NCBI GenBank assembly: GCA_016190895.1
Contig: JACPPR010000030.1
Coordinates: forward strand, 241-64,240
Direction: 5' to 3'
DNA length: 64,000 nucleotides
Origin: Chloroflexota bacterium
GTDB taxonomy: Bacteria > Chloroflexota > Dehalococcoidia > Dehalococcoidales > UBA2162
Shown here: in pieces, positions 31,757 to 56,117 of the stretch
How the letters are laid out: every line of letters begins with the position of its first letter
How positions within the stretch are numbered: position 1 is the first letter of the stretch
The notes under the pieces: model-generated
The model's input: only the letters and a program-made list of their open reading frames with translations
The model's database searches: none
Told to the model about the DNA's origin: nothing
Position numbers and translations under genes: made by a program

Positions 31757-31812
31757 AAGAGACGGAAACTCATTACCGCTAACGGGCTGTGCAGAGAGGG
31801 GTTTTGTTCAAT

Positions 31813-32256
31813 ATGAAGCGAGTTTTTATCAAGGAAAAAGTCTGTATGGGCTGTCACCTGTGCGAGGTGTATTGCCAGCAGCAGCACTCCAAATCGAAGG
31901 ACCTGATTAAAGCCTTTAAGACGGAAACCCCTCGTCCGTTACCGAGAGTCAGGATGGAGGCGAAAGGCTCCGTATCCTTCTCCGTGCGCTGCCAGCATTG
32001 CGCCGATGCTCCCTGTACTCAAGCCTGTCTTACCGGCGCTCTCAGCAAAGACCCCGTTACGGGAGTGGTTCTAGTGGATACCGAGAAGTGCGTCGGCTGC
32101 TGGACCTGTATCCTGGTTTGTCCCTTCGGAGCCATCAGGCGGGATGAAGAGCAGGGTAAAGCTGTCAAGTGCGACCTCTGTCGTGGGAGACCAACGCCGG
32201 CCTGCGTGGATAATTGTCCTAATGAGGCGCTGATATTTGCCGAAGCCGAAAGCTGA
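31813..32256 (+). CDS. 4Fe-4S dicluster ferredoxin-type subunit (electron-input module of split glutamate synthase)
   Basis: Cys motifs CMGCHLCEVYC, CQHCADAPC, CVGCWTCILVCP and CDLCRGRPTPACVDNCP. Start at ATG 31813. Confidence 0.8.
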   Translation: MKRVFIKEKVCMGCHLCEVYCQQQHSKSKDLIKAFKTETPRPLPRVRMEAKGSVSFSVRCQHCADAPCTQACLTGALSKDPVTGVVLVDTEKCVGCWTCILVCPFGAIRRDEEQGKAVKCDLCRGRPTPACVDNCPNEALIFAEAES

Positions 32257-32271
32257 TGTGAGAGAGAAGAA

Positions 32272-32898
32272 GTGATTGCGGTAATCGATTACGGCGCCGG
32301 CAATCTGCGCAATGTGGCTAATGCCATCAGCAGGTTGGGCTATGAGCCTAAGATAACCGGTGACCCGGCCGAAGTTTTTAATGCCCAGGCGGTTGTCTTG
32401 CCCGGGGTGGGCGCGGCGGCCGATGCCATGTCTAATCTGGCGAAGCTGAAGCTGGTGCGCCTGATTCGCCGGATTATCGATGAAGATAAGCCTTTTCTGG
32501 GTGTCTGCCTTGGTCTACAGGTGCTCTTTACGGGTACTGAAGAGGGCGGCTGGCACGAGTGTCTCGGCATTATACCGGGAAGCGTGCGGAAACTGCCGGC
32601 CGGGCTGAAGATACCTCATATGGGCTGGAACCAGGTCAGGCAAAAGATGACGCACCCGATTTTTGAGGGTGTGCCGGATGAGGCTAATTTTTACTTCGTG
32701 CATAGCTATTATGCCGAGCCGGAGGACAAATCGTTGGTCGCCGGTGAAACCGATTACGGCATTCCGTTCTGCAGCGTCATCGCCCGGGGAAACCTGGTAG
32801 CAACCCAGTTCCATCCGGAGAAGAGCGGCGAGCTGGGGCTGAAGATTTATGATAATTTCATCAAGCTTGCTCTTGGAGCGAAGGCAGGCCGTAACTAA
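32272..32898 (+). CDS. hisH: Imidazole glycerol phosphate synthase, glutamine amidotransferase subunit
   Basis: IAVIDYGAGNLRNV, GVCLGLQ, QFHPEKS; GTG start. Confidence 0.9.
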   Translation: MIAVIDYGAGNLRNVANAISRLGYEPKITGDPAEVFNAQAVVLPGVGAAADAMSNLAKLKLVRLIRRIIDEDKPFLGVCLGLQVLFTGTEEGGWHECLGIIPGSVRKLPAGLKIPHMGWNQVRQKMTHPIFEGVPDEANFYFVHSYYAEPEDKSLVAGETDYGIPFCSVIARGNLVATQFHPEKSGELGLKIYDNFIKLALGAKAGRN

Positions 32899-32927
32899 TG
32901 CGAGTTTGGAAGTGACGTAAGCAATTT

Positions 32928-33015
32928 CCTCTCCCTTGAGGGGAGAGGTTAGGTGAGGGTGATATGATTCTGTGACCCCTCACCCTTATTCCCTCTCCCG
33001 CAAGGGGAGAGGGAG
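32928..33015. repeat. GGGAGAGG-hairpin repeat family, symmetric double copy
   Basis: CCTCTCCCttgaGGGGAGAGG ... CCCTCTCCCgcaaGGGGAGAGGG, with inner inverted repeat GGTGAGGGTG/CCCCTCACCC. Confidence 0.75.
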
Positions 33016-33034
33016 ATTGGATGGCTGAGAGAAA

Positions 33035-34405
33035 ATGGCTACTAAAAAGATAGAGAAAGTAAAATACCTGATTATCGGGAACTCGGCGGGAGGCATCGGG
33101 GCGGTGGAGGCTATCCGTGAGAAAGACAAGACGGGGACGATTGCCATCATCTCGGACGAGCCTTACCCGGCTTACTCACGGCCGCTCATCTCACCCTATC
33201 TGGCTCACGAGCGCACTCTGGAGAGTATGCTCTACCGCCCGGCTGATTTCTATGAAAAGAATAGCGTCCAGGCTTTTCTGGGCGTCAAAGTGGAGCGGCT
33301 CGACCTGGAGAACCATGCCATCGACCTGGCGGACAAAGGCAGAATCGAGTGGCAGAAGCTCTTGCTGGCTACAGGCGGGGTGCCGATTTTCCCCAAGACC
33401 GAAGGCAGCGACCTGAAAGGCGTCTTTACCTTTACCACCCTGGATGATGCTAAAGTTATCGACAAGTTCCTGGGTAAGCCCCTTCGACAAGCTCAGGGCA
33501 AGCCCTCAAAGAAAAAGGTGAAAGCGGTGGTTATCGGCGGCGGCCTTATCGGGGTCAGCGTCACCGAAGCCCTGGTCAAACGCGGGGTTGCTGTAACCAT
33601 CGTCGAGCTGAGGGAGCGGGTGCTGAATGTCATTCTCGATGAAGTCGCCTCGGCTTTGGCTGATGAAGCCCTGAAGAAGGTCGGCGTTAAGATTGTCACC
33701 GGTCACACGGTAAGTAAAATAACGGGCGATTCGGCGGGCAATGTGGCCGGCGCTATTTTCGATGATGGCAAAGAACTGCCCTGCGATATGGTGATTGTCG
33801 CCATCGGCGTCCAGCCCCGCCTGGAACTGGTGAAAGATACAGGGATAAAGGTGAACCGCGGTATTGTAGTCGACCGTCATATGACTACTTCTAATCCGGA
33901 TGTTTACGCCTGCGGGGATGTCGCCGAGGCTTATGATTTTGTTCTCGGGATAAACCGGCTCACCCCCATATGGCCCAATGCCTATGTCGGGGGCAGAGTC
34001 GCCGGCTTGAATATGGCGGGCGTCCCGACCGATTACCCGGGCGGCACGGCGATGAACTCTTCGCACTACTTCGGCGTTAGCGTTGTCTCGGCAGGGGTAG
34101 TCACTCCCACGGGCGATGGTTATGAGGAACTCAGCGCCCGCAGCGACCATTCTTACAAGAAGGTCCTTGTGAAAGACGGGCTGGTGGTGGGCATGGTCTT
34201 CAGCGGCGACATCGAGAAAGCGGGCATAATTTACAATTTGATAAAAGACAAAGTGAAGGTAGAGGCTTTCAAGCAAACTCTTGTCGCCAGTGATTTCGGT
34301 TTGCTCTCTTTGCCTGAAGAGAGGTGGCGGCCGAAACTGGAATTGCCGGCCAAGGCAGCCCCTTCAGCAGCCTCTGGCAAGAGTGGTTCTCCCACAGGGC
34401 ACTAA
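33035..34405 (+). CDS. FAD-dependent NAD(P)H oxidoreductase (NirB/rubredoxin-reductase/Nox-like)
   Basis: Two Rossmann motifs (IIGNSAGGIGA, VIGGGLIGVSV) and YSRPLIS. Contains a repeat-derived segment at 33479-33506. Confidence 0.82.
   Translation: MATKKIEKVKYLIIGNSAGGIGAVEAIREKDKTGTIAIISDEPYPAYSRPLISPYLAHERTLESMLYRPADFYEKNSVQAFLGVKVERLDLENHAIDLADKGRIEWQKLLLATGGVPIFPKTEGSDLKGVFTFTTLDDAKVIDKFLGKPLRQAQGKPSKKKVKAVVIGGGLIGVSVTEALVKRGVAVTIVELRERVLNVILDEVASALADEALKKVGVKIVTGHTVSKITGDSAGNVAGAIFDDGKELPCDMVIVAIGVQPRLELVKDTGIKVNRGIVVDRHMTTSNPDVYACGDVAEAYDFVLGINRLTPIWPNAYVGGRVAGLNMAGVPTDYPGGTAMNSSHYFGVSVVSAGVVTPTGDGYEELSARSDHSYKKVLVKDGLVVGMVFSGDIEKAGIIYNLIKDKVKVEAFKQTLVASDFGLLSLPEERWRPKLELPAKAAPSAASGKSGSPTGH
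33479..33506 (+). repeat. Same 28-nt repeat unit inside the FAD oxidoreductase CDS
   Basis: CCCCTTCGACAAGCTCAGGGCAAGCCCT, encoding PLRQAQGKP. Confidence 0.8.
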
Positions 34406-34430
34406 TACTGATTAGGCAGGGATGTAGCTA

Positions 34431-35570
34431 ATGGAAGATTTACAAAAGATTAACAATCCTTACGGTGCCGATAAGGTAATCGATTCCTGTTCCATCTTCG
34501 GAATGATGGATACCTCGGGGCGCCGGTTCTCCGGCGAGGACATCACCAAGGCGATTGCCAATATGCACTTCAGGGGCAACGGTCTGGGGGGCGGGCTGGC
34601 TGTCTACGGTATTTATCCCGATTATGCCGACCATTACGCCTTTCATATTATGTACCTGAGCCCGCAGGGACAGCAGCAAACGGAGGCTTTCCTGAAGGAC
34701 AAATTCTACATGGTCAAAGCTGAGGAAGTGCCGATGCGGCCGATTCCGGCGATTGTCAATCCGCCGGCAGTCTGGCGCTACTTCCTCGATGTCAAGCAGG
34801 ACAGGCGCGGCGCTGAATCTGCCGACGACTATGTAGTCGAGCGGGTGATGGATATCAATACCAAGCTGAAAGACAGCTTTGTTTTCTCCAGCGGCAAGAA
34901 TATGGGCGTGTTCAAGGGAGTCGGGTATCCGGAGGAGATATCCGAATACTTCCGTCTGGAAGAATATGAAGGTTATCTCTGGACTGCCCACGGCCGTTTC
35001 CCGACCAACACGCCGGGCTGGTGGGGGGGCGCTCACCCGTTCAGTATTCTCGATTGGACGGTGGTTCACAACGGAGAGATTTCCTCTTACGGCATCAACC
35101 GCCGCTACCTGGAGCAGTTCGGCTATCAGTGCACGATGCAGACCGATACCGAGGTGGTCGCTTACGCTATCGACCTTCTCATTCGCAGGCATAACCTGCC
35201 CATCGAAATAGCGGCCGAGGTGCTGGCGGCGCCCTTCTGGAGCGATATCGAGCGGATGCCGCCGAAGGAGCAGAAGCTGGCCCGCACTCTGCGACAGGTC
35301 TATCCCGGTCTGCTACTGAACGGGCCGTTCACGATAATTATTGCCCACAATGGCGAAATGATCGGCCTTACCGACCGAATCAGGCTGAGACCCCTGACCG
35401 TAGGTGTCAACGGTAACATGATATATCTCTCCTCGGAGGAGGCCGCCATCCGTCTTATCAGTCCCGAGCTTGACGCCGCCTGGATTCCGAGCGGTGGCGA
35501 GCCGATTATCGGCCGGCTGGGAGTCCAGCTAAAACCGGAACCGTCCGTTGTTAGTGGAGCCAGGTTATAA
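34431..35570 (+). CDS. Class II glutamine amidotransferase, GltB domain-1-like subunit
   Basis: [34 protein letters not shown]. Confidence 0.82.
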
Positions 35571-35571
35571 G

Positions 35572-36354
35572 ATGCTGACCAAGAGGATTATCCCCTGTCT
35601 CGATGTGAAAAATGGCCGGGTGGTCAAGGGAGTCAAGTTCCGCGACCACCGTGATGCCGGTGACCCTGTCGAATTGGCTGCCTTCTATAACGAGCAGGGG
35701 GCTGACGAGCTTGTTTTTTATGATATTACCGCCTCCAGTGATGGGCGGGAAATTATGAGAGAGGTAGTAGAGCGCACCGCCGGTCAGGTATTTATTCCGC
35801 TGACTGTGGGTGGCGGGCTGCGCACTGTGGAGGATATCCGGCAGATGTTAGCAGCCGGCGCCGATAAAGTTTCTATCAATACGGCGGCAGTGCTAGACCC
35901 AGATTTTATTACCCGGGGCGCCGAGCGGTTCGGCAACCAGTGTATCGTTCTGGGGATGGATGCCCGGCGTGTTCCGGGGTCGAACCCGACTCGCTGGGAG
36001 GTGTTCACGCATACCGGGGCAGATGGCGGCCGAACTTCCGGCAGGGATGCTGTGGAGTGGGCTATCGAGGCCGTCAAAAAAGGCGCTGGCGAGATAGTTG
36101 TTAATAGCATCGATGCCGATGGCACTCAGGCCGGCTACGACCTGGAGTTGCTCCGGTCCATTTCCGAGGCAGTCAGCGTGCCCGTAGTGGCTAGCGGCGG
36201 CGCCGGACAGCCTGAAGATTTGTATCAAGCCCTGGTCTCCGGTAAAGCCGATGCTGTGCTGGCAGCCACCATCTTTCATTACGGGACTTATTCGATTAAC
36301 GATGTTAAAGAGTACCTGAGGAAAAAACAAATAGCGGTGCGCGCAAGAGGCTAA
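35572..36354 (+). CDS. hisF: Imidazole glycerol phosphate synthase, cyclase subunit
   Basis: [23 protein letters not shown] ... [21 protein letters not shown] 35572 lies 1 nt after the upstream stop. Confidence 0.92.
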
Positions 36355-36359
36355 ATTAA

Positions 36360-36408
36360 GGTAGCGCAGGCGTCCTCGCCTGTGCTTGCAGGCGGGATGC
36401 CTGTAATA
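36360..36408. repeat. Same hairpin family
   Basis: GCGCAGGCGtcctCGCCTGTGC plus a second hairpin, after hisF. Confidence 0.75.
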
Positions 36409-36460
36409 CCGAGAGGTGAAGAAGTAAAAGACCGATTGAGGTTGGGGTGGAGTAGGAATA

Positions 36461-37966
36461 ATGAAAACGTTTTTACCTGCTAAATTCAAAGTAGACAGGA
36501 GCTCAGACCGGTGCATTCAGTGTCAGGTCTGTGTTAACCAGTGCAGCTTCGATGTCCATTATTATGACGCCGAAGACAACGAAGTGCGCAGCCGCGAAGA
36601 GAATTGCGTCGGTTGCCACCGTTGCGCCATCTTCTGCCCGGCCCGCGCCCTGACCATCAGCCGGAACCCGATGGACTATCGGGATAATTTGAACTGGCGT
36701 GGCGAAACTATCGAGGATATCTTCAAACAGGCGGAAACCGGCGGTATGCTTCTGACCGGTATGGGTGACGACAAAGGGCAGCGCATCTACTGGGACCATT
36801 TGGTCTTGAATGCTAGCCAGGTTACCAATCCATCTATCGACCCGCTGCGGGAACCGATGGAGTTGGTCACCTATATCGGGCGCAAACCCGACCGGGTGAC
36901 CATCGACCCGGTGACTCGTGAACTGAAGACGGATTTAGCTCCGCAAATCAAACTGGAAATACCGGTGATGTTTTCGGCGATGTCTTACGGCGCCGTCAGC
37001 CTTAATGTGCAGGAGTCTCTTGCCAGGGCGGCCACCGAGTTCGGCACCCTGTGGAACACGGGCGAGGGCGGGCTTCAATCTAGCCTGTTCAAGTATGGCA
37101 AGAACACCATCGTCCAGGTGGCATCGGGACGTTTCGGAGTGCACTCCGATTACCTAAATGCCGGACAGGTGGTTGAGATAAAGATTGGTCAGGGCGCCAA
37201 GCCCGGTATCGGCGGCCACCTGCCGGGGGAGAAGGTGAGCCTGGATGTTTCACTCACCAGGATGATACCCCAGGGCACCGATGCTCTGTCACCGGCGCCA
37301 CAGCACGATATCTACTCCATCGAGGACCTGGCGCAGTTGGTCTATGCCCTGAAAGAAGCCACCAATTACACCAAACCCATCTCGGTGAAGATTGCTGCCG
37401 TCCACAATGCGGCGGCTATTGCCAGCGGTATGGTCAGAGCTGGCGCCGATATCATTTGTCTTGACGGCCTGAGGGGAGCTACCGGAGCCGCTCCCAAGGT
37501 GATTCGTGACAATGTCGGCATTCCCATCGAGATGGCGCTGGCGGCGGTGGATTCCCGCCTGAGACAGGAAGGTATCCGTAACCAGGCTTCGGTAGTCATT
37601 GCCGGCGGTATTAGAAGCGCCGGTGACGTGGCTAAGGCGATTGCCCTGGGGGCGGACGCTGTTTACATCGGGACGGCGGCTCTGATTGCACTGGGCTGCC
37701 ATGTCTGCCAGCAGTGTCACACAGGCAAATGCGCCTGGGGTATCTGCACCTCCGACCTGGGTCTGACCAAGAGAATCAATCCTGACATCGGCGCCCAGAG
37801 ACTGGTCAATTTGTTGCGCGCCTGGAGTCTGGAGCTGAAAGATATTCTCGGCGGCCTGGGCGTCAATGCCCTGGAAAGCCTGAGGGGCAACCGCTTGCAC
37901 TTGCGGGGCATCGGACTGACTGATACCGAACTGGATATCCTCGGCGTAAAGATGGTAGGAGCTTAG
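36461..37966 (+). CDS. Glutamate synthase FMN-binding (GltB domain 2) subunit with N-terminal 2x[4Fe-4S]
   Basis: CIQCQVCVNQC, CVGCHRCAIFCP, KIGQGAKPGIGGHLPG, LRGATGAAP. Confidence 0.88.
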   Translation: MKTFLPAKFKVDRSSDRCIQCQVCVNQCSFDVHYYDAEDNEVRSREENCVGCHRCAIFCPARALTISRNPMDYRDNLNWRGETIEDIFKQAETGGMLLTGMGDDKGQRIYWDHLVLNASQVTNPSIDPLREPMELVTYIGRKPDRVTIDPVTRELKTDLAPQIKLEIPVMFSAMSYGAVSLNVQESLARAATEFGTLWNTGEGGLQSSLFKYGKNTIVQVASGRFGVHSDYLNAGQVVEIKIGQGAKPGIGGHLPGEKVSLDVSLTRMIPQGTDALSPAPQHDIYSIEDLAQLVYALKEATNYTKPISVKIAAVHNAAAIASGMVRAGADIICLDGLRGATGAAPKVIRDNVGIPIEMALAAVDSRLRQEGIRNQASVVIAGGIRSAGDVAKAIALGADAVYIGTAALIALGCHVCQQCHTGKCAWGICTSDLGLTKRINPDIGAQRLVNLLRAWSLELKDILGGLGVNALESLRGNRLHLRGIGLTDTELDILGVKMVGA

Positions 37967-37967
37967 A

Positions 37968-38729
37968 ATGACAAAAACAGCCGGCAATTCGGTAGTAAAA
38001 ATAGATACCACGGGCATTTTATATAAAGAGCTTAATGCTCGACTGAGGGAGATAGCTTCGGATAGTGTCGAGAAGGTCGAGCTTTACAATGTCTGCGGGC
38101 AGAGATACATCGGCACGGACCTGAACAGGCCGATTCAGATTGATATCTACGGCACGCCTGGCAACGACCTGGGCGCTTTTATGAACGGGCCGAAGATTGT
38201 CGTACACGGCAATGCCCAGGACGGCTGCGGCAACACTATGAATGAGGGCGAAATAATCGTTCACGGACACGCCGGAGATGTCCTCGGCCTATCGGCGCGC
38301 GGTGGCAAAATCTTCGTCCGTGATTACGTCGGTTATCGAGCCGGCATTCATATGAAAGAGTATAAGGAAAAGAAACCGACGCTGGTTATCGGCGGTACTG
38401 CTCAGGATTTTGCCGGTGAGTATATGGCCGGAGGCGTGCTGGTTCTACTAGGTCTGAATCTCGCTGAAGGGGAGAAACACAAGGCAAAATACATCGGCAC
38501 CGGTATGCACGGCGGTGTTATTTACCTTAGGGGCGAGGTCGAGAAGTACCAGTTAGGCCCTGAAGTTGGCGTCGCCGAACTGGATGAGAAGGACAATCAA
38601 GTTCTACGGACGCTGGTCGGTGAGTTCGCCGGCCACTTCGGGTATCCGGCTGACAAGATACTGAACCATAAGTTTATGAAACTGTATCCTCGCTTTCTTC
38701 GCCCTTACGGAAGGCTTTACGCTTATTAA
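37968..38729 (+). CDS. Glutamate synthase GXGXG (GltB C-terminal beta-helix) subunit
   Basis: VHGNAQDGCGNTMNEGEIIVHGHAGDVLG repeats. Confidence 0.85.
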   Translation: MTKTAGNSVVKIDTTGILYKELNARLREIASDSVEKVELYNVCGQRYIGTDLNRPIQIDIYGTPGNDLGAFMNGPKIVVHGNAQDGCGNTMNEGEIIVHGHAGDVLGLSARGGKIFVRDYVGYRAGIHMKEYKEKKPTLVIGGTAQDFAGEYMAGGVLVLLGLNLAEGEKHKAKYIGTGMHGGVIYLRGEVEKYQLGPEVGVAELDEKDNQVLRTLVGEFAGHFGYPADKILNHKFMKLYPRFLRPYGRLYAY

Positions 38730-38762: not shown

Positions 38763-39437
38763 ATGCTGCGCCTGCTGATTATAGCCCCGGAAAGTAAGGC
38801 ACTGGCGGAGCTGGCCACCGCCCTGAACCAAAAAGATATTGCCTGTGCAACGGCATCTCCTGACGGTGAAATGACGGAGTTAATCGCCCGTCAATCTCCG
38901 GATTTGGTTATGGTTGAGGTGGGCGGGCGTTTTCCAGATTCAGCCACGTGGGAGCTTATTCACGGAATAAAGCGCGAGCGTTCTCTACCGGTTATCGCTC
39001 TGGTAGCCGGCGAAGTGTCCGAAGAAATCAACGGCTATTTTGAAGTAGATGATTTTCTTGTTCGCCCCTACGATCTCAGCGAACTGCTAATCAGAGCCAA
39101 GCGGCTGCTGCAGAACTGCAAGGCTGTCAGCGGCAGCGAGCTGATTAAGTGTGACGGCCTGGTGATAGACGTGACGAATTGCGATGTGACGGTGGGCGGG
39201 AAAGTCGTCGAGCTTACCTTCAAGGAGTACGAGTTATTGAAGCTGCTGGCGGCGAACCGGGGCCGGGTTTACACCCGTCAGGACTTGCTCAACAAAATCT
39301 GGGGCTATGACTACTACGGCGGTGACAGGACTGTCGATGTCCACGTCAGGCGCCTCAGAAGCAAGATAGAAGGACCCGGTGAGGTCTTCATCGAGACAGT
39401 CAGAAACGTCGGCTACCGGTTTAAGAAAGACGCCTGA
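38763..39437 (+). CDS. OmpR/PhoB-family winged-helix regulator with degenerate (pseudo-)receiver domain
   Basis: The C-terminus is typical (LTFKEYELLKLLAANRGRVYTRQDLL...TVDVHVRRLRSKIE...VRNVGYRF). The receiver lacks the canonical residues: LLIIAPES replaces the DD pocket, PDLVMVEV replaces the phospho-Asp, ALVAG replaces Thr, and VRPY replaces Lys-Pro. Confidence 0.85.
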   Translation: MLRLLIIAPESKALAELATALNQKDIACATASPDGEMTELIARQSPDLVMVEVGGRFPDSATWELIHGIKRERSLPVIALVAGEVSEEINGYFEVDDFLVRPYDLSELLIRAKRLLQNCKAVSGSELIKCDGLVIDVTNCDVTVGGKVVELTFKEYELLKLLAANRGRVYTRQDLLNKIWGYDYYGGDRTVDVHVRRLRSKIEGPGEVFIETVRNVGYRFKKDA

Positions 39438-39540: not shown

Positions 39541-39709
39541 TAGATTGCACTACTGCTCTGCTATCATGCCCAATGTGCGGCTATGATGCTCTAAGGAACC
39601 CGGTCCAACCAGCAGGCAGGATTGCCACCGGTCGAATCTAGCTGTGTATTATTAGCAAGTCACCAATCGGTTAGTGGCTCGCCTCAGTACGATAAGGGTG
39701 GAACGATTA

Positions 39710-41014
39710 ATGACTGACGTCAATATTCTAGTCAATGTGATATTAGTATTAGGCGCTGCTGTGGTCGGCGGCGCTTTGGCTCTCCGCCTGAAACAACCTG
39801 TTATCCTTGGATATCTCGTTGCTGGTCTTATCGTAGGACCATTCACTCCTGGTCCGCAAGCCGACTTCGACCAGTTTCGCTTCCTGACGGAGGTCGGTCT
39901 GGGTTTGCTTCTATTTGTGCTTGGGGCCGGCTTGCCTCCTTCGCGATTTCGGGGACTGGGAACTGTCATCGTATTAGGGGGAGCCATCCAAATTACGCTT
40001 GTTAGTGCGCTGGGGTTTCTCTTTATGCTCTGGTTTAGCCTGAGCCTGGCACAGGCGTTCTTGTTGGGTGCCATTCTGGCTCAGTCGAGTAGCGCGGTGA
40101 TAGCAAAGGTTCTCGATGACCGCAACGAGACTGAATCGGTTCACGGACGGATTGCCGTCGGTATGAGTGTCGTTCAGGACCTTTCTTCTCTCCCTCTGCT
40201 ACTCTTGTTGTTGGTCTTCCTCGGGCAAAACGATGTGACGCTTTCATCCTTCATTGTTACCATTGGCGAGGTATTTGGCATCGCCATCTTTATGTATGTC
40301 ATAGGCAAGGTCATCTGGCCCCGGTTTCTGGAGTGGATTGGATACATGGGTTCCGATGAATTGACTATTTTGGTGGCGTTGCTTCTCGCGTTGGGTGGCG
40401 GACTCCTGTTGCAACAGATTGGACTTTCCTTCACACTTGGGGCTTTTCTTGCAGGCCTAGTAATTGCGGAATCTCCTCAACGCCAGGAAGCGGTTTCCAG
40501 GATGTTACCGCTAAGGGATGTCTTCGCCGCCATGTTTTTCGTTTCTATCGGAGCTTTGTTTAATCCGTCTGTACTCTGGCAATTACCCATCCCGCTAATT
40601 GGACTTCTGAGTACTCTGGTCATAGGCAAGGCGCTAATCACGGGCGTCGTGGTCAGGACATTCGGGCAAAGCGCTTCCACTGCCATTCTCACGGGACTGC
40701 TTCTCGCTCAGATTGGCGAGTTCGCGTTTATTTTAGCCAATATCGGGCTGGAACACGGTGCTATCACACAAGAATTATTCTCTCTAATAATAGCTGCAGC
40801 TGTTATCAGCATTTTCATAAATTCGTTGATTTTGGATTCGGCGCCTCCGGTACTTGTAGCATTGGCCAGGATTATGCGATTCAACGCGCTTTTGAAGCAA
40901 CCTCCTGGGTCTGTCACATCGACCTTTAGAAGAGGCCGTTCGATGGCTGACGGGTCAAGGGTTCAAAGCTCATCCTTCCAATCACGGAAGGACAAAACTC
41001 AAAACCATAGCTAA
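39710..41014 (+). CDS. Cation:proton antiporter (CPA2/Kef-type membrane domain only)
   Basis: Multi-TM. ATG 39710 after SD AAGGGTGGA. No TrkA/KTN domain. Confidence 0.8.
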   Translation: MTDVNILVNVILVLGAAVVGGALALRLKQPVILGYLVAGLIVGPFTPGPQADFDQFRFLTEVGLGLLLFVLGAGLPPSRFRGLGTVIVLGGAIQITLVSALGFLFMLWFSLSLAQAFLLGAILAQSSSAVIAKVLDDRNETESVHGRIAVGMSVVQDLSSLPLLLLLLVFLGQNDVTLSSFIVTIGEVFGIAIFMYVIGKVIWPRFLEWIGYMGSDELTILVALLLALGGGLLLQQIGLSFTLGAFLAGLVIAESPQRQEAVSRMLPLRDVFAAMFFVSIGALFNPSVLWQLPIPLIGLLSTLVIGKALITGVVVRTFGQSASTAILTGLLLAQIGEFAFILANIGLEHGAITQELFSLIIAAAVISIFINSLILDSAPPVLVALARIMRFNALLKQPPGSVTSTFRRGRSMADGSRVQSSSFQSRKDKTQNHS

Positions 41015-41118
41015 GAACTCAAAACTCCTTTTTGCAGTTTTGGTATACTGATTTTTCTTTACCTAGTTACTTTTGAGTTGTGGTTTTAACCTTTAAGCTT
41101 TCACTTTTTACCTCTCCT

Positions 41119-41178
41119 GTAACACAGATTTAATCTGTCCGTAACTTACATTTAACCTCTTTGTAATTCCACCGAAAC
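41119..41178 (+). promoter_or_regulatory. Six 11-bp phased pentamer boxes (candidate activator site) upstream of sORF-amt1
   Basis: GTAAC 41119, TTAAT 41130, GTAAC 41141, TTAAC 41152, GTAAT 41163, GAAAC 41174. Confidence 0.6.
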
Positions 41179-41220
41179 AATCGGGCGTTAAGCTAGATAT
41201 AAAACGCAAGGAGGTTACCG

Positions 41221-41343
41221 ATGTCGATTGAAGCAATCCTGGCCGCAGTATCTTTCATTGGGCTTTTCACCGCCTGGGTGATTCTGCCCAGCCGCCTGCA
41301 CAAGCGCCACGCCGCTAGAGAACAGAACGAATCCCTCGAATAG
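41221..41343 (+). CDS. Candidate 40-aa single-TM small protein upstream of amt1
   Basis: Read manually. Strong SD AAGGAGG lies 6 nt before the ATG. Product MSIEAILAAVSFIGLFTAWVILPSRLHKRHAAREQNESLE. Confidence 0.4.
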   Translation: MSIEAILAAVSFIGLFTAWVILPSRLHKRHAAREQNESLE

Positions 41344-41355: not shown

Positions 41356-41452
41356 CCTCACCCCGTTCGGCTACGCTCAGGGCAGGCTCTAACCCTCTCC
41401 GACCTCACCCCTGTCCCCTCTCCGCTTGCGGAGAGGGGGAGAAAGAGGAGAG
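41356..41452. repeat. GGGAGAGG-hairpin repeat family
   Basis: Contains CCCCTCTCCGCTTGCGGAGAGGGG, identical to the core at 56192-56215. Confidence 0.75.
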
Positions 41453-41503: not shown

Positions 41504-43009
41504 TTGTTTATGAAAGACCGCTTATCGGACACGATGGAATCAGTGAAATCTACCTTGTCTCCGTTAGCGCCGCTGGTCAAGCGGCGCTGGTTCAAAGGAC
41601 TGGTAATGGCGTTCATTCTGTTCGGGGCTTTCTGGGGATTGCCGGCTATCGCCCGCGCCGCCGACCCGACCGGCACGGATACTTTTAACGCTAATCCCAA
41701 CAGCGCCGTCAATATGGCCTGGACGCTCATCACCGGTTTCCTGGTCTGGTTTATGCAGCTCGGTTTCGCCTTCCTGGGCGCCGGTCTGATTCGCTCCAAG
41801 AATCAGACTAACTACTGGACGAAGAGCTTTATGGATTTTTGTATCGCCTCGCTGGGCTTCTGGGCATTTGGGTTCGCCCTGATGTTCGGAGGCTCGAAGT
41901 TATTTCCCGGCCTAGATGACGGTAATGCGTGGATAGGTTTTTCCGGGTTTTTCCTGAGCGGCGGCGCCTATGATGTCTCGACGATTATGATGTGGTTCTT
42001 CCAGATGGTCTTTGCCGCTACCGCCACGACTATCGTTGCCGGCGCCGTGGCCGAAAGGATGAAGATTTCTGCCTACCTGGCTTACGCCTTTATTATCGGC
42101 GCTCTTATTTATCCTCTCTATGGTAAGTGGATATGGGGTGGCGGGTGGCTGGGCAGCTTAAGTATTGCTGGCGCTGCGGGCGCCAGAGACTTTGCTGGCT
42201 CCAGCGTCGTTCACATGGTCGGCGGATTGGCTGCCCTGATTGGTGCGGCTATGGTCGGACCGAGAATCGGCAGATTCAATAAGGATGGGACGCCCAATAA
42301 CATCAAAGGTCATAACCTGCCTTTTGTCGTTATCGGTACCTTCATCCTTTTCTTCGGCTGGTTCGGTTTTAATCCCGGCAGCACCCTGGCGGCTACCGAC
42401 CTGCGTATCTCGGTCATCGCTGTCAATACTTTCCTGGCCGGCGTTACCGGCGCGGTAGTAGCGCTCTACTGGGTTTTTGCCAAGACCGGCAAGATGGATA
42501 TCATCATGGGCTGCAACGGTAGTCTGGTCGGGCTGGTCGCCGTTACTGCGCCGGCGGCCTATATCGCTCCGTGGGCGGCAGTGCTCATCGGAGCGATAGC
42601 GGTTCCATTCATGTTTGCCACGAATCATGTTGTTGAGCGTGTGCTCAAGGTAGACGATGCCGTAGGCGCCGTCCCGGTGCACCTGGGTGGAGGGATGTGG
42701 GGCATGCTGGCAGTGGGTATTTTCGCCGATGGAACCTATCTAGGGGTCAAGGGACTCATTGCCGGTGAGATAGGCCAGCTAATCCTGCAACTAGTCGCCA
42801 TCGGGACTGTGTTTGTCTGGGTGGGCGTAACGGCCTTCCTTACCTTCTGGGCTATCAGAAAGAGCATCGGTCTGCGGGCTAGCCGTGAAGAAGAGCTGCA
42901 GGGGCTGGATATACCAGAGCACGGCATAGAAGCCTATCCGGCTGATTCCAGTATCACTTTAGGCGGAAGTACTCCTGTTGTTCCAAAGGCGCTCCCGGTT
43001 ACTCGTTAA
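41504..43009 (+). CDS. amt: Ammonium transporter (long form with signal-peptide-like N-terminus)
   Basis: AGSSVVHMVGG and FGWFGFNPGS. Start is TTG 41504 or ATG 41510, after AGGAGG. Confidence 0.92.
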   Translation: MFMKDRLSDTMESVKSTLSPLAPLVKRRWFKGLVMAFILFGAFWGLPAIARAADPTGTDTFNANPNSAVNMAWTLITGFLVWFMQLGFAFLGAGLIRSKNQTNYWTKSFMDFCIASLGFWAFGFALMFGGSKLFPGLDDGNAWIGFSGFFLSGGAYDVSTIMMWFFQMVFAATATTIVAGAVAERMKISAYLAYAFIIGALIYPLYGKWIWGGGWLGSLSIAGAAGARDFAGSSVVHMVGGLAALIGAAMVGPRIGRFNKDGTPNNIKGHNLPFVVIGTFILFFGWFGFNPGSTLAATDLRISVIAVNTFLAGVTGAVVALYWVFAKTGKMDIIMGCNGSLVGLVAVTAPAAYIAPWAAVLIGAIAVPFMFATNHVVERVLKVDDAVGAVPVHLGGGMWGMLAVGIFADGTYLGVKGLIAGEIGQLILQLVAIGTVFVWVGVTAFLTFWAIRKSIGLRASREEELQGLDIPEHGIEAYPADSSITLGGSTPVVPKALPVTR

Positions 43010-43322: not shown

Positions 43323-43393
43323 CGGTGGCAGGCTTTTCGTGAGAATGTTTATTGCTATCGTCTACCTTTGGGTTCTGAGTTTTCAGTTTTCTT

Positions 43394-43431
43394 GTAACAT
43401 GTTTTTAACATATCCGTAATATGCTGGAAAC
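43394..43431 (+). promoter_or_regulatory. Four 11-bp phased boxes upstream of amt2
   Basis: GTAAC 43394, TTAAC 43405, GTAAT 43416, GAAAC 43427. Same order as the last four boxes of the amt1 site. Confidence 0.6.
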
Positions 43432-43471
43432 ACTAATGGCATAAGCTGGATGTAAAAGCAAGGAGGAACTT

Positions 43472-44704
43472 ATGCCCATTAATTCCGGTGATACTGCCTG
43501 GATACTGGTTTCGGCAGCCCTGGTGATGCTGATGACGCCGGGGCTGGCTCTTTTCTATGGGGGGATGGTGAGACGGAAGAACGTGCTCTCCACCATGATG
43601 ATGAGCTTCGCCATGCTCGGTCTGGTCGGCATTCTCTGGGTGCTCTATGGGTACAGTTTGAGCTTCGCTCCTGATATAGGTGGCATCATCGGCGGTTTTG
43701 ACTTCTTAGGACTCAAGAATGTCGGGCAGGACCCGTCATCGGTCTATGCCACCACCGTTCCTCACCTGGCCTTTATGATATATCAGGCGATGTTTGCCAT
43801 AATTACCGTCGCCTTATTTACGGGAGCCGTTGTCGACAGGATAAAATTCAGCGCATTGCTTGTCTTTTCGGCTCTGTGGTTGACCCTCATTTACGTTCCG
43901 GTGGCGCACTGGGTGTGGGGCGGCGGGTGGCTGGCGAAGCTGGGCGCCCTCGATTTTGCCGGCGGCACCGTGGTTCATATCAATGCCGGTGTCTCGGCGC
44001 TGGCTTTAGCCCTGCTCCTGGGACCCCGTAAGGGTTTTAAGGACAAGGAGCCTATGGAGGCCCACAATATTCCCTGGGTAATGCTGGGCGCGGGCTTGCT
44101 CTGGTTCGGTTGGTTCGGCTTTAACGCCGGCAGCGCTCTCACGGCTGGCGGGTTGGCTTCCAGCGCATTCGTTGCTACCAATACTGCTGCCGCCAGCGCC
44201 GCTTTCACCTGGATGCTGCTGAGCTGGATTTACCGACGTCCGACGGCTTTGGGAACGGTCACCGGCGCCGTTATCGGACTGGTGGCCATTACTCCTGCGG
44301 CCGGCTTTGTTGCACCGATAATGGGCATTCCCATAGGTATGGGGGCAGCCCTGGTCGGCTATTATGCCATGCTTGTCCGGGCAAAAACGCGGGTGGACGA
44401 TTCTCTGGATGTCCTGGCCTGCCATGGGATGGGGGGTATCTGGGGAGCTTTAGCGACCGGTATTTTTGCCAGCGTCGCTGTCAATTCAGCCGGAGCCGAC
44501 GGCCTGATTTTTGGTAATGCTATGCTGGTCGTCAAACAATTGGTTGCTATCGTCGCCGTTGGAGTCTTTGCCTTCGTCGGCACCTGGATTTTGGGCAAGC
44601 TCGTCGATATCACTATCGGGCTTCGAGTTAGTCCTACTGAAGAAAATCTGGGTCTTGATATATCCCAGCACGGTGAAAGAGCTTATGGAGGGCTTGCACG
44701 ATAA
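43472..44704 (+). CDS. amt: Ammonium transporter
   Basis: 410 aa with DFAGGTVVHINAG and FGWFGFNAGS. Confidence 0.94.
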   Translation: MPINSGDTAWILVSAALVMLMTPGLALFYGGMVRRKNVLSTMMMSFAMLGLVGILWVLYGYSLSFAPDIGGIIGGFDFLGLKNVGQDPSSVYATTVPHLAFMIYQAMFAIITVALFTGAVVDRIKFSALLVFSALWLTLIYVPVAHWVWGGGWLAKLGALDFAGGTVVHINAGVSALALALLLGPRKGFKDKEPMEAHNIPWVMLGAGLLWFGWFGFNAGSALTAGGLASSAFVATNTAAASAAFTWMLLSWIYRRPTALGTVTGAVIGLVAITPAAGFVAPIMGIPIGMGAALVGYYAMLVRAKTRVDDSLDVLACHGMGGIWGALATGIFASVAVNSAGADGLIFGNAMLVVKQLVAIVAVGVFAFVGTWILGKLVDITIGLRVSPTEENLGLDISQHGERAYGGLAR

Positions 44705-44736: not shown

Positions 44737-44764
44737 GTAGGGGCGCAGCATGCTGCGCCCCTAC
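44737..44764. repeat. Same palindrome family
   Basis: GTAGGGGCGCAGCATGCTGCGCCCCTAC, between amt2 and amt3. Confidence 0.85.
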
Positions 44765-44805
44765 GGAACGGCGGCATGTCTGAAGGTCAAATATTTTATC
44801 TCTTT

Positions 44806-44821
44806 GTAACATGTTCGTAAC
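44806..44821 (+). promoter_or_regulatory. Two GTAAC(AT) direct repeats 11 bp apart upstream of amt3
   Basis: GTAAC at 44806 and 44817. Confidence 0.45.
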
Positions 44822-44871
44822 ATTAGTGGGCTAAACTGCATTTGTAGAATATACAAAGGGAAGGGGAAGTT

Positions 44872-46104
44872 ATGCCCATTAATTCCGGTGATACTGCCTG
44901 GATATTGGTCTCGGCAGCCCTGGTTATGCTCATGACTCCAGGGCTGGCTCTTTTCTACGGGGGGATGGTGCGGCGGAAGAACGTGCTTTCGACTATGATG
45001 ATGAGCTTTGCCATGCTGGGTTTGGTCGGCCTTCTCTGGGTGCTTTATGGCTATAGCCTGAGCTTCGCTCCTGATATGAGTGGCATCATCGGCGGTTTTG
45101 ACTTTATGGGTTTGCGGAACGTTGGACAGGAACCGTCCTCGGTTTATGCCACCACTGTTCCTCACCTGGCCTTTATGATATATCAGGCGATGTTCGCTAT
45201 CATCACTGTCGCCCTCTTCACCGGAGCCGTTGTGGACAGGATAAAGTTCGGCGCTCTGCTGGCGTTCTCAGCCTTGTGGCTGACATTCATCTATACGCCA
45301 GTGGCGCACTGGGTGTGGGGTGGTGGCTGGCTGGCAAAGCTGGGCGTTCTGGACTTCGCCGGCGGCGTGGTAGTTCACATCAATGCCGGTATGTCGGCTT
45401 TGGCTCTGGCTTTGCTGCTGGGTCCCCGCAAGGGTTTTGTTGAAAAGGAACCGATGGAAGCGCACGATATTCCTATGGTGATGCTGGGGGCAGGGTTGCT
45501 CTGGTTCGGCTGGTTCGGCTTCAATGCCGGCAGCGCCTTCACTGCCGGCGGGCTGGCCTCCAGCGCCTTTGTGGCTACGAATACGGCCGGGGCCGCCGCT
45601 GCCTTTACCTGGATGCTGCTTAGCTGGATATACCGCAGACCGACGGCTCTTGGGACAGTCACCGGGGCTGTTATCGGGCTGGCTGCGGTCACTCCGGCCG
45701 CCGGTTTTATCTCGCCGATAATGGGAATACCCATCGGCATCGGGGCGGCGCTGGTTGGGTACTATGCTATGCTTTTCCGGTCGAAATCACGTGTCGATGA
45801 TTCCCTGGATGTTATGGCTGCTCACGGTATGGGTGGTATCTGGGGAGTGCTGGCGACAGGCATATTTGCCAGTGTGGCTGTCAATGCGGCGGGAGCCGAT
45901 GGGCTTATCTTCGGAAACGGAGCGCAGTTACTGAAGCAGATGGCTGGCGTTGTTGCCGTCGGCGGCTTTTCTTTTATCGGGACGCTGATTTTGGGCAAGC
46001 TCGTCGATGCTACTATCGGTCTTAGAGTTACCCGCACTGAAGAGAATTTGGGCCTTGATATATCTCAGCATGGTGAAAGAGCTTATGGAGGGTTGGGAAG
46101 ATGA
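44872..46104 (+). CDS. amt: Ammonium transporter (tandem paralogue of the previous gene)
   Basis: 410 aa; by eye roughly 85-90 percent identical to amt2. Confidence 0.94.
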   Translation: MPINSGDTAWILVSAALVMLMTPGLALFYGGMVRRKNVLSTMMMSFAMLGLVGLLWVLYGYSLSFAPDMSGIIGGFDFMGLRNVGQEPSSVYATTVPHLAFMIYQAMFAIITVALFTGAVVDRIKFGALLAFSALWLTFIYTPVAHWVWGGGWLAKLGVLDFAGGVVVHINAGMSALALALLLGPRKGFVEKEPMEAHDIPMVMLGAGLLWFGWFGFNAGSAFTAGGLASSAFVATNTAGAAAAFTWMLLSWIYRRPTALGTVTGAVIGLAAVTPAAGFISPIMGIPIGIGAALVGYYAMLFRSKSRVDDSLDVMAAHGMGGIWGVLATGIFASVAVNAAGADGLIFGNGAQLLKQMAGVVAVGGFSFIGTLILGKLVDATIGLRVTRTEENLGLDISQHGERAYGGLGR

Positions 46105-46478
46105 AAAAAATAGAAGCTATCATTCGGGAAGAAAGGTTGGAACCTGTCAAACAGGCTCTGGAGGCCGGGGGTTACTTCGCTATGACTGTCACCGAGGTGA
46201 GCGGGCGTGGCGAGCAAAGGGGGCTTACCCTACCCTGGCGAGTCGGAGAGTATCGGGTCGATTTACTGCCTAAACTCAAACTTGAGATTGTCGTTCAGGA
46301 TAAAGAGGTCGATACGATAGTCAAAGCGATTATTGACAATGCCCGGACTGGTGAGATTGGCGATGGTAAGATATTTATCATACCAGTAGAAAACGCAATC
46401 CGCGTCCGCACCAACGAGGATGGCGACAAAGCAATCAATAAAGTAACAAACAATAAGGAGGAAGCAAAGACAAAATGA
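46101..46478 (+). CDS. glnK: PII nitrogen regulatory protein (GlnK-type, amt-linked)
   Basis: TVTEVSGRGEQRG T-loop with conserved Tyr (VGEY) and GDGKIFI. ATGA overlaps on both sides. Confidence 0.92.
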   Translation: MKKIEAIIREERLEPVKQALEAGGYFAMTVTEVSGRGEQRGLTLPWRVGEYRVDLLPKLKLEIVVQDKEVDTIVKAIIDNARTGEIGDGKIFIIPVENAIRVRTNEDGDKAINKVTNNKEEAKTK

Positions 46479-47890
46479 ATTCAACGGAAGTCATAAAGTT
46501 TGCTAAAGAGAAGGGCTGTCAGTTTGTCGACCTCAAGTTCATCGACCTGCCCGGCACCTGGCAGCATTATACTCTGCCTATCAGCGAGCTAAATCAGGAC
46601 CTCTTCGAGGAGGGTAACGGTTTTGACGGTTCTTCGATAAGGGGCTTTCGGCATATCAACGAAAGCGATATGTTGCTGATTCCCGACCCGGCGACGGCTA
46701 TCTGCGACCCGGTACTGGAAGTGCCGACATTGAGCCTGATTTGCGACGTGCGTGACCCGCTCACGGGCAAGGACTACGAGCGTGACCCGCGTAATATCGC
46801 CAAGAAGGCTGAAGCTTATCTGAAGACGACGGGCATTGCCGAGGGTAGTTACTGGGGTCCCGAACTGGAATTTTTCATATTCAACAGCATACGTTTCGAG
46901 CAAAACAGCCATGTCGGCTTCTATGCCATCGATTCCCAGGAGGGCATCTGGAACTCAGGTAATGGCGAGCACAGTAATCTGGGCTACCGCCCCCGTCACA
47001 AGGAAGGCTACTTCCCGGTGCCGCCTACCGACCAGACACACGATATCCGTACTAAAATCGCCCTCAAAATGATGGAGGGTGGTTTGAAGATTGAAAAGCA
47101 TCATCATGAGGTTGCCACTGCCGGACAGGCTGAGTTCGGTATCCGCTTCGATACCCTGACCAGGCAGGCGGATAATGTTATGCTCTACAAGTACATTGCT
47201 AAGAACGTGGCTGTGCAGAATGGCTTTACGGTGACATTCATGCCCAAGCCGCTTTTCCAGGACAATGGTTCAGGAATGCACGTACATCAGAGTCTCTTCA
47301 AGGGCGACAAGAACGTTTTCTACGATGCGAAGGGCTATGCCCTGCTTTCCCAGACGGCTAAACATTATATAGGCGGGCTGCTGGCACATTCACCGGCTTT
47401 GCTGGCGCTCTGCGCTCCGACCACCAACTCTTACCGCCGGCTCGTCCCCGGTTACGAGGCTCCCATCAATCTGGTTTACTCGGCAAGTAACCGCAGCGCC
47501 AGCATTCGTATTCCTCAGTACTCGACCAGTCCGAAGACCAAGAGAATCGAGTACCGCTGCCCGGATTCGAGCAGCAATCCGTATCTGGCCTTCGCCGCCA
47601 TGCTGCTGGCTGGCCTGGATGGCATCAAGAATAAGATTGACCCCGGCGAGCCTATCGACAAGGATATTTATGAGCTTGCGCCGGAAGAAAAGGCCAATAT
47701 CAAGTCAACGCCCGGCTCACTGCTCGAGGTACTGGATGCCCTCCGCGAAGACCATGATTTCCTTCTGAAGGGTGATGTCTTTACCGAGGACCTCATCGAG
47801 ACCTGGATAAACTACAAGAGAAAGAATGAGTATGACCAGGTCGCCCTGCGACCCCATCCCTACGAGTTCCATCTGTACTACGATATTTAG
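46475..47890 (+). CDS. glnA: Glutamine synthetase type I (471 aa)
   Basis: FDGSSIRGF, GSGMHVHQSLF, NSYRRLVPGYEAP. Confidence 0.95.
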   Translation: MNSTEVIKFAKEKGCQFVDLKFIDLPGTWQHYTLPISELNQDLFEEGNGFDGSSIRGFRHINESDMLLIPDPATAICDPVLEVPTLSLICDVRDPLTGKDYERDPRNIAKKAEAYLKTTGIAEGSYWGPELEFFIFNSIRFEQNSHVGFYAIDSQEGIWNSGNGEHSNLGYRPRHKEGYFPVPPTDQTHDIRTKIALKMMEGGLKIEKHHHEVATAGQAEFGIRFDTLTRQADNVMLYKYIAKNVAVQNGFTVTFMPKPLFQDNGSGMHVHQSLFKGDKNVFYDAKGYALLSQTAKHYIGGLLAHSPALLALCAPTTNSYRRLVPGYEAPINLVYSASNRSASIRIPQYSTSPKTKRIEYRCPDSSSNPYLAFAAMLLAGLDGIKNKIDPGEPIDKDIYELAPEEKANIKSTPGSLLEVLDALREDHDFLLKGDVFTEDLIETWINYKRKNEYDQVALRPHPYEFHLYYDI

Positions 47891-56089: not shown

Positions 56090-56117
56090 GTAGGGGCACA
56101 GCATGCTGTGCCCCTAC
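56090..56117. repeat. Same palindrome family
   Basis: GTAGGGGCACAGCATGCTGTGCCCCTAC, right after the orphan nrpR fragment. Confidence 0.85.

Follow-up and report, generated by a model that had tools for sequence, protein, structure and literature searches.

The DNA considered here is a window of 64,000 nucleotides (positions 241 to 64,240 of contig JACPPR010000030.1, assembly GCA_016190895.1) from a member of the Chloroflexota (Dehalococcoidia, Dehalococcoidales, UBA2162). It carries a cluster of nitrogen genes with an orphan transcriptional regulator in its midst, and this regulator is likely to be a phosphorylation-independent activator resembling the GlnR protein of actinobacteria. The regulator gene (38763..39437, + strand) starts with ATG, has a GGGGG ribosome-binding site 6 to 10 nt upstream, and encodes a protein of 224 amino acids. 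It follows a split (archaeal-type) glutamate synthase (glt) operon (31789..38729, +), recognized from its Pfam domains and gene order: Fer4, GATase, Pyr_redox_2, GATase_2, His_biosynth-like, Glu_synthase, and GXGXG. Only 33 bp separate the end of the GXGXG glutamate synthase gene from the regulator start. Because scanning of this gap (the part from 38600 onward) turned up neither a promoter-like nor a terminator-like match, the regulator gene is probably the last gene of the glt operon. On its other side come three ammonium transporter genes, amt1 (41504..43009, +; 501 amino acids as listed, with an uncertain start codon), amt2 (43472..44704, +; 410 amino acids), and amt3 (44872-46104, +), the last followed by the P-II protein gene glnK (46101-46478, +) and by glnA (46475-47890, +). 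Since their stop and start codons overlap, amt3, glnK, and glnA are one operon (44872..47890). The first-pass annotation of this DNA had placed the regulator gene after the glutamate synthase genes and before the amt-glnK-glnA genes. That order stands, but a Na+/H+ exchanger gene and a 40-codon open reading frame (ORF) intervene before amt1.

What kind of protein is encoded here? The regulator is a member of the OmpR/PhoB family, as seen from its winged helix of the Trans_reg_C type and its receiver fold. The winged-helix DNA-binding domain (residues ~126-224; 39138-39434, +) matches Pfam Trans_reg_C (PF00486) over residues 146-220 (1.3e-27, 96 bits), and an earlier description of it as canonical is borne out by this match and by structural superposition. 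An AlphaFold2 model made with 41 homologues as input (mean predicted local distance difference test score, 79) contains a complete (beta-alpha)5 receiver, its five strands and five helices following one another in sequence, and a winged helix. Foldseek searches with the model returned OmpR/PhoB regulators exclusively, and the predicted structure superposes on the DNA-binding domains of GlnR, PhoB, and VicR with template modeling (TM) scores of 0.84-0.91. Among NCBIfam models, the protein falls in with PhoB, MtrA, YycF, and similar ones, far under every equivalog cutoff, and the source databases label its homologues as generic response regulators or “PhoP.” In the publicly available gene call (P0001), the protein starts at Met37, has 188 amino acids, and so lacks strand beta1 as well as the degenerate acidic pocket; all homologues back the longer start, which gives 224 amino acids.

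The N-terminal domain (residues 1-118; 38763-39116, +) is a pseudo-receiver. It scores 23.6 bits on Pfam Response_reg (PF00072), under the cutoff of 30.2 bits, while canonical receivers of the WalR/PhoP type score 103-114 bits. The receiver fold itself is given a probability of 99.3% by hhalign against a profile of 13 canonical receivers. None of the five residues of the canonical phosphorylation quintet is retained. A8-P9 stands at the position of the acidic pair (E/D-D), E52 at that of the phospho-Asp at the end of strand beta3, V81 at that of the Thr, and R101-P102 at that of the Lys-Pro. These positions agree across three independent alignments (HMMER against RegX3, MAFFT with canonical regulators, and hhalign), so the intact acidic pocket that a better alignment might have revealed was not seen. 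The first-pass annotation had every phosphorylation residue lost. None is indeed canonical, but “lost” conceals two conservative replacements, D to E and K to R. E52 is at least 90% conserved among 41 family members, and Asp occupies the equivalent position in 89 of 150 representatives of more distant atypical relatives. Judged by its residues, the domain is an aspartate-less receiver of the Glu type rather than a featureless relic. Among aspartate-less receivers, Glu is the commonest substitute for the Asp, and it can render the protein constitutively active (PMC4395418). Because the acidic pocket, the Thr, and the Lys are all gone, phosphotransfer of the histidine kinase type to this regulator is very unlikely. 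The absence of a histidine kinase from the window, noted at first pass, held up in a Pfam scan of all ORFs of at least 150 amino acids in the 64 kb, in which no HisKA or HATPase_c protein appeared; a kinase elsewhere in the genome is possible. Likewise, no histidine kinase gene is conserved beside regulator homologues in the loci examined.

The promoters of the amt genes carry direct repeats phased at 11 bp. This, too, had been reported at first pass, and the coordinates given then proved exact. A six-unit array (41118..41183, +), found by pattern and position weight matrix (PWM) scans, lies upstream of the 40-codon ORF and amt1 and reads TGTAAC/TTTAAT/CGTAAC/TTTAAC/TGTAAT/CGAAAC, with its proximal hexamer at 41173-41178. 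Exactly 10 nt past the proximal unit comes a predicted -10 box, TAAGCT (41189..41194, +); the -35 position is occupied by ATTCCA, which has 3 of the 6 consensus bases. Upstream of amt2 is a four-unit array (43393..43436, +; TGTAAC/TTTAAC/CGTAAT/GGAAAC), followed by another predicted TAAGCT -10 box (43442-43447, +), with ATATGC at the -35 position. The amt3-glnK-glnA promoter region (44794..44837, +, including the predicted -10 box) has a weak unit, TTTTAT (44794), and two strong ones, TGTAAC (44805) and CGTAAC (44816), the latter separated by a 10-nt spacer from the putative -10 box TAAACT (44832-44837, +). The amt2 and amt3 genes are tandem paralogues with 88% amino acid and 80% nucleotide identity, but their promoters have diverged, with four strong units versus two.

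How exceptional are these arrays? The four-unit pattern GTAAY-n6-TTAAY-n6-GTAAY-n6-GAAAC, with up to 3 mismatches, occurs three times in the window (41119, 41141, and 43394), versus 0.00 times expected from 100 shuffles, and all matches are on the coding (+) strand upstream of amt genes. A two-unit pattern has 8 matches versus 1.02 expected, 6 of them within the three amt promoters, including the one at 44806-44821. The two-unit matches at 7086 and 40493, considered as further sites, are isolated and are treated as chance. With a PWM built from the amt arrays of the window and from related arrays, the scores are 40.3, 37.5, and 19.6 for the three amt promoters and at best 11.6 for any unrelated position in the 64 kb. 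A scan for sigma-70 consensus promoters did not call the amt promoters, which is taken as the absence of a -35 box, not the absence of promoters. If TAnnnT is read as the -10 box, the units fall at about -28, -39, -50, and -61, and no usable -35 box is left.

Conservation extends these observations beyond a single genome. The regulator has thousands of relatives in the databases, the closest named ones being from the Chloroflexota and Dehalococcoidales. A search of representative sequences, clustered at 50% identity, has at least 150 clusters with scores above 190 bits (GlnR scored 148 bits on the family profile in a separate search of solved structures), and within the family the mean column identity is 63%, with 42 invariant columns. 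Among the matches listed in a search of genome contigs, the closest is 44% identical over most of the protein, and many are generic regulators. In seven distinct close-family loci, the regulator gene lies between glt or nrpR genes and amt-glnK-glnA, or beside asnB. The regulators of five of these loci (L001, L003, L004, L090, and L091) are 56-61% identical to that of the window, and at this level of identity the gene lies in such a cluster on every long contig examined; those of L010 and L011/L013 (Dehalococcoidales) are 41-43% identical. L001, L003, L004, and L090 have the order glt operon, sometimes nrpR, regulator, amt (one or two copies), glnK, glnA, nadE, and nrpR, while L091 has glt operon, regulator, and asnB; the step from glt operon to regulator gene thus recurs in L001, L003, L004, and L091. 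An array upstream of amt is kept in L001, L003, L004, L090, L010, L011, and L013. Those in loci outside the PWM training set score 40.7 (L010), 25.7 (L013), and 14.1 (L011) and lie 37-50 bp 5' of amt. Of 13 amt promoters, 12 have a gap of exactly 10 nt between the proximal hexamer and a TAnnnT hexamer, and the thirteenth has one of 11 nt.

More distant atypical relatives are encoded beside glnA or nadE in metagenomic loci (L008 and L009), Armatimonadota (L012), Chloroflexi (L022), and Omnitrophota (L023, L024, and L075), and in L008, L009, and L022 phased GAAAC/GTAAC/TTAAT arrays lie upstream of glnA. Phased units are also seen beside glnA in four loci of Acidimicrobiia (L032 at ~4329, L038 at ~4323, L063 at ~3843, and L065 at ~4313, minus strand). 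There they read GTTCAC/GGCAAC/GGAAAC, lie between two divergent glnA-type genes, and show a proximal unit, 10 nt, and NAnnnT. A separate element, AGTATGTAGTAMATTTA, found upstream of glnA in L001 (12355-12385) and L004 (13785-13810), is distinct from the GTAAC arrays.

The features of the protein and of the promoters recall one known regulator in particular. GlnR activates amt, glnK, and glnA in actinobacteria, and its motif in M. smegmatis is t/gTAAC-n6-Gc/aAAC (PMC10704036). GlnR recognizes GTAAC half-sites in sites separated by 6 bp, and at the M. tuberculosis amtB promoter four protomers bind head-to-tail; the b2 site lies downstream of -35, and the protomer bound there contacts both the beta flap and sigma region 4, a geometry that the authors call distinct from class I and class II activation (PMC10235972). 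The S. coelicolor amtB promoter has six GlnR sites, the most known in one promoter (PMC5826061). The promoters of the window are alike in half-site (GTAAC/GAAAC), in their 6-bp spacers, in having four or six sites, and in their predicted position past -35. Both regulators are orphans without a kinase whose receivers are not used for Asp phosphorylation, the predicted targets here are the same amt, glnK, and glnA genes, and relatives of the window protein are encoded beside glnA.

Sequence and structure comparisons point in the same direction. The best matches of the regulator among solved structures are actinobacterial GlnR chains, namely, 8HIG (described in the PDB as the S. erythraea GlnR DNA-binding domain with DNA), 8HIH (the M. 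tuberculosis GlnR transcription activation complex), and 8HML (a cocrystal of the S. erythraea GlnR DNA-binding domain and DNA) (PMC10235972). In Foldseek, 8HIH ranks second and has the highest identity among full-length matches (35%), and 8HIG aligns with a TM score of 0.91, a root mean square deviation of 1.5 Å, and 50% identity. With the family profile, the GlnR DNA-binding domain of 8HML scores 132.6 bits versus 103 and 101 for the next chains that consist of a DNA-binding domain only, those of YycF and VicR. The DNA-binding domain of the regulator is 52-58% identical to those of GlnR and 27-51% identical to those of canonical regulators, and its recognition helix, RTVDVHVRRLR, is identical at the base-contacting GlnR residues R186, V190, R193, and R194. 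The parallel with GlnR drawn at first pass is therefore strengthened by the structure matches, by the GTAAC sites with 6-bp spacers, and by the conserved context and arrays.

There are differences, of course. GlnR keeps its Asp for charge contacts in the homodimer, while the window regulator has Glu. GlnR belongs to the Actinomycetota, while this regulator is chloroflexotal, embedded in a glt operon, and accompanied by an NrpR homologue. Where the family of the window regulator has C28, C130, and C140 (codons 38844-38846, 39150-39152, and 39180-39182), each at least 90% conserved and together marking the subclade of the regulator, GlnR has Val, Leu, and Tyr. By analogy with RitR, this cysteine triad could be a thiol or metal switch.

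How might such a regulator work? We consider it likely that it is a phosphorylation-independent, GlnR-like activator of the OmpR/PhoB type that acts on amt-glnK-glnA. The pseudo-receiver, with Glu at the acceptor site and neither acidic pocket nor Thr nor Lys, would probably keep the protein in an active-like state that is competent for oligomerization. The winged helices would then bind head-to-tail on two to six direct half-sites resembling (T/C)GTAAC at 11-bp spacing. The promoters would offer a -10 box without a usable -35 box, and the arrays would occupy the stretch from about -61 (or -83) to -23, so that the proximal protomer would sit between -35 and -10 and the next one over -35. From there, the regulator would recruit RNA polymerase and switch on the three amt genes, glnK, and glnA. 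How would nitrogen status be conveyed? The leading possibility is control of dose through the glt operon. The dose of the regulator is probably set by the glt promoter because its gene is the last of that operon, and this promoter may in turn be under an NrpR homologue that senses 2-oxoglutarate.

This NrpR-family gene (54406-55401, +), identified by the Pfam domains HTH_12 and NRD1_2, went unseen at first pass and makes its product the second candidate nitrogen regulator of the cluster. NrpR, known from methanogens as a repressor that senses 2-oxoglutarate, controls the same kinds of genes but belongs to an unrelated family, making it a partner or rival of the orphan regulator, not a relative. 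The NrpR-family gene is conserved in the clusters of L001, L003, L004, and L090. A second nrpR gene lies directly before the regulator gene, ending 3-12 bp upstream, in L003 (8984-9997), L004 (8984-9997), L090 (104-1117), L011 (~4224-5216), and L013 (~4987-5982), and this proximity suggests that NrpR and the orphan regulator are functionally coupled. Where might NrpR bind? The canonical NrpR operator GGAA-N6-TTCC, sought at the promoters of the window, has one match, inside glnA, versus 1.65 expected, and was discarded. Just 5' of the first glt operon gene is an inverted repeat, CGGAAACTCATTACCG (31763..31778, +). Its counterpart, CGGYAA-N4-TTRCCG, is found at the same place in L001 (2890-2905), L003 (2033-2048), and L004 (~1840, with one mismatch), in these relatives right after a TTGACA/-10-like pair. 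The motif is not enriched across the window (2 matches versus 1.6 expected), and it is possibly an operator of the NrpR type. The AT-rich leader of nrpR itself (54305-54400) contains an inverted repeat, AATACTACCAATA ... TATTGGTAGTATT, and several copies of TACCAATA / GTAGTATT, possibly an autoregulatory site.

Several considerations weigh against a GlnR-like activator. Binding of the arrays by this protein, its activating effect, and the input from nitrogen status are predictions from sequence and comparison, and the same holds for the -10 boxes and hence for the -28 and -39 positions. The recognition helix does not discriminate, since its four base-contacting residues also occur in E. coli PhoB. 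The regulon predicted in the window is narrow, unlike the global regulon of GlnR, since by PWM no array stands above background at the glt operon, the second glnA, nadE, or nrpR, nor at the nirA-like gene of the window. The protein also lacks a match to the Pfam model GlnR_1st (PF21695) at an E value of ≤10, and in hhalign the receivers of the family score 116 against canonical receivers and 36.8 against those of GlnR. Finally, a proximal site within the promoter spacer could mean repression, another OmpR family protein could bind the amt arrays, and arrays of the TGTAAY-n5 type in Firmicutes loci with canonical WalR-like regulators score up to 34 with the same PWM.

Is the regulator, then, a GlnR? 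By these profile scores it is not GlnR sensu stricto and falls outside that family in its present definition. The parallel is one of function, in that the protein probably works like GlnR; it may also be a distant homologue, and common descent is plausible. In the profile comparison, which had been proposed along with the original annotation, the DNA-binding domain is nearest to GlnR, GlnR_1st is unmatched, and the receiver is closer to canonical ones. Sub-threshold GlnR_1st matches occur in 13 of 41 family members (best, 5.8e-5). Mycobacterial GlnR scores 149-150 bits on that model, and actinobacterial GlnR proteins have no Response_reg match at an E value of ≤0.01. Lineages in between score 14-26 bits on GlnR_1st (cutoff, 27), equal to or above their own Response_reg scores, with a maximum of 25.9 in Armatimonadota (L012). 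The receivers of GlnR score 35.4 against canonical ones in hhalign and so stand about equally far from the family and from canonical regulators. In an unrooted neighbor-joining tree (200 bootstraps), the split between 61 atypical sequences (the regulator family, other phyla, Acidimicrobiia, and true GlnR) and 15 canonical ones has support of ~100% with all columns, 98.5% with the receiver, and 17% with the DNA-binding domain. Reading this split as proof that GlnR and the family form one clade was withdrawn, because the receiver is nearer to canonical ones in hhalign and slow-evolving canonical receivers would cluster tightly in an unrooted tree anyway. Relatedness to GlnR is argued instead from the score of the 8HML DNA-binding domain, from the GlnR_1st scores of the intermediate lineages, and from the linkage to nitrogen genes, which is continuous across the group.

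Might the same protein act from the same sites in the opposite sense? A repressor that occupies -23 to -61 and blocks RNA polymerase when nitrogen is sufficient would fit the overlap of the proximal units with the -35 region and spacer of the predicted amt promoters, and repression from comparable positions is known for OmpR/PhoB proteins, GlnR and PhoP among them (PMC11825685; PMC10704036). Repression is nonetheless unlikely, in that these promoters lack a recognizable -35 box (ATTCCA and ATATGC) and escape a consensus scan, as is typical of promoters that depend on an activator. Furthermore, the identical geometry activates in the GlnR transcription activation complex, and the GlnR targets amt, glnK, and glnA are activated ones. 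Another question is whether the arrays belong to this regulator at all. TGTAAY-n5 is also the consensus of the WalR-type box, and the half-site is common to WalR-type and GlnR-type regulators, so the motif alone does not identify the binder. WalR/YycF/VicR and PhoP/PhoB have nearly the same recognition helix and use 11-bp phased, TGTAA-like direct repeats (TGTWAH-n5 or Pho-box), and the proximal protomer of PhoB-type regulators contacts sigma region 4. They differ in having an intact quintet, a cognate kinase, and cell wall or phosphate genes as targets. In the Firmicutes loci with WalR-like regulators mentioned above, four-unit TGTAAY-n5 arrays are followed by TATAAT (L080 at 8458, L025 at 4145, L040 at 3403, L085 at 3267, and L076 at 8594). 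A canonical WalR/PhoP-like regulator with its kinase elsewhere in the genome might therefore occupy the amt arrays, with the orphan having another target or a modulating role. Such regulators with the same recognition helix do lie beside kinase genes in Dehalococcoidia (L004, 818-1501; L001, 17382-18077), and competition of PhoP with GlnR at the amtB and glnA promoters of Streptomyces (PMC3561978) provides a precedent. We rate this as quite improbable, given that the orphan gene and the arrays stay adjacent down to ~40% identity and in several phyla while canonical pairs are not conserved neighbors, and that neither a kinase nor a second OmpR family regulator is encoded among the ORFs of at least 150 amino acids in the window.

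The remaining alternatives concern the receiver. Rather than being simply constitutive and controlled by dose, it might be switched by an unlinked kinase, by modification of Glu52, by Ser/Thr phosphorylation or acetylation of the kind known for Streptomyces GlnR, by a thiol switch, or by binding of GlnK or a metabolite. The conserved cysteines would suit such a switch, as would the purifying selection on the domain (16-24 invariant or nearly invariant receiver positions) and the presence of redox-switched regulators of the RitR type among the Foldseek matches; GlnR, for its part, is modified on Ser/Thr and Lys (PMC12632262). With the acidic pocket, Thr, and Lys gone and no conserved sensor partner beside the gene except NrpR and GlnK, a switched receiver seems rather unlikely, about as much so as a repressor or slightly more. 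ChxR of Chlamydia trachomatis, HP1043, and RitR are instructive here. They are likewise aspartate-less or pseudo-receiver proteins with Glu for the phospho-Asp that bind direct repeats (PMC4395418; PMC12632262), and by analogy phosphorylation-independent activity would be expected of the window regulator. They have no nitrogen connection or similar gene context, and their similarity to the window regulator is far below that of GlnR or RegX3. RitR uses a cysteine switch, but the conserved cysteines of the window protein are at positions other than that of RitR Cys128. Finally, could the gene be the decaying relic of a two-component system, without present function? The sub-threshold Pfam receiver and the shortened 188-residue gene call might give that impression. 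The idea is effectively refuted by the conservation data, with hundreds to thousands of full-length homologues, the many invariant columns already described, conserved synteny, and a fold predicted with fair confidence. The GlnR-like activator is thus the explanation we prefer.

Other features of the window complete the picture. The Na+/H+ exchanger gene (39674-41014, +) separates the regulator gene from the first amt promoter and looks like a lineage-specific insertion, because in all relatives examined the amt promoter directly follows the regulator gene with no exchanger between. Between the six-unit array, which it follows directly, and amt1 lies the 40-codon ORF (MSIEAILAAVSFIGLFTAWVILPSRLHKRHAAREQNESLE; 41221-41343, +). 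Its ribosome-binding site, AAGGAGG, is strong, and its product has a single hydrophobic helix; Pfam returned no match, and none of the relatives examined has a counterpart. Downstream of glnA come, in order, a class I aminoacyl-tRNA synthetase gene, a second glnA, the gene for a glutamine-dependent NAD synthetase (nadE), and the NrpR-family gene. Two overlapping small ORFs (55530-55736 and 55736-55960, +) have a look that we take to be that of a HicB-type antitoxin and a HicA-type toxin. Among the intergenic repeats, the GC-rich perfect palindrome GGGGCRCRGCATGCYGYGCCCC has three copies (31585-31606, 44740-44761, and 56093-56114) and a second one, CCTCTCCGCTTGCGGAGAGGGG, has two (41417-41438 and 56194-56215), each versus 0.00 expected; they are repetitive extragenic palindrome-like elements or terminator hairpins. 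A 46-bp AT-rich element (AAACAAATCCAAATTAC…CCAAATGCCAA) occurs at 52384-52429 and 56758-56803 with 85% identity, in the leaders of nadE and of a nitrite/sulfite reductase-like gene. Rfam and tRNA scans of the window gave no matches and hence no riboswitch explanation for the long leaders.

What would all this mean for nitrogen control in bacteria? That an orphan regulator of the OmpR type can govern nitrogen genes is known already from Actinobacteria, and in the literature searched GlnR-type control is treated as an actinobacterial trait. Because a nonphosphorylatable regulator lies among nitrogen genes here and GlnR-like arrays lie at the amt promoters, GlnR-like nitrogen control probably exists outside Actinobacteria as well. 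A search of the literature yielded no account of a GlnR-like regulator from Chloroflexi or Dehalococcoidia, which is not proof that there is none. Nitrogen regulation in the Chloroflexota is essentially uncharacterized, including in the Dehalococcoidia, which matter in bioremediation and abound in the subsurface and in marine sediments. One broader and more tentative idea, which we would put forward only as a speculation worth considering, is that GlnR-type control, in the form of atypical OmpR family regulators and phased GTAAC/GAAAC arrays at the promoters of amt and glnA, is old and widespread rather than an invention of actinobacteria, reaching across Chloroflexota, Armatimonadota, Omnitrophota, Acidimicrobiia, and classical Actinomycetes. 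The Dehalococcoidia regulator would then be a constitutively active Glu variant that forms a second tier under NrpR, the first tier being control of the glt operon, including the regulator gene, by NrpR and the second being control of amt-glnK-glnA by the regulator, with the cysteine triad as a possible redox or metal input.

The locus offers a testable regulator-operator pair, in which a single small protein is matched with three promoters whose half-sites and geometry are defined, and behind it stands a family of hundreds of sequence clusters with conserved synteny. If the GlnR-like activator proves true, the activation geometry of GlnR, with a protomer between -35 and -10, would extend beyond Actinobacteria. 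The regulator would also be a natural example of a pseudo-receiver with Asp changed to Glu, in which one could study what keeps domains of this kind active, and the organism would possess a bacterial gene cluster that joins an archaeal-type NrpR with a GlnR-like activator.

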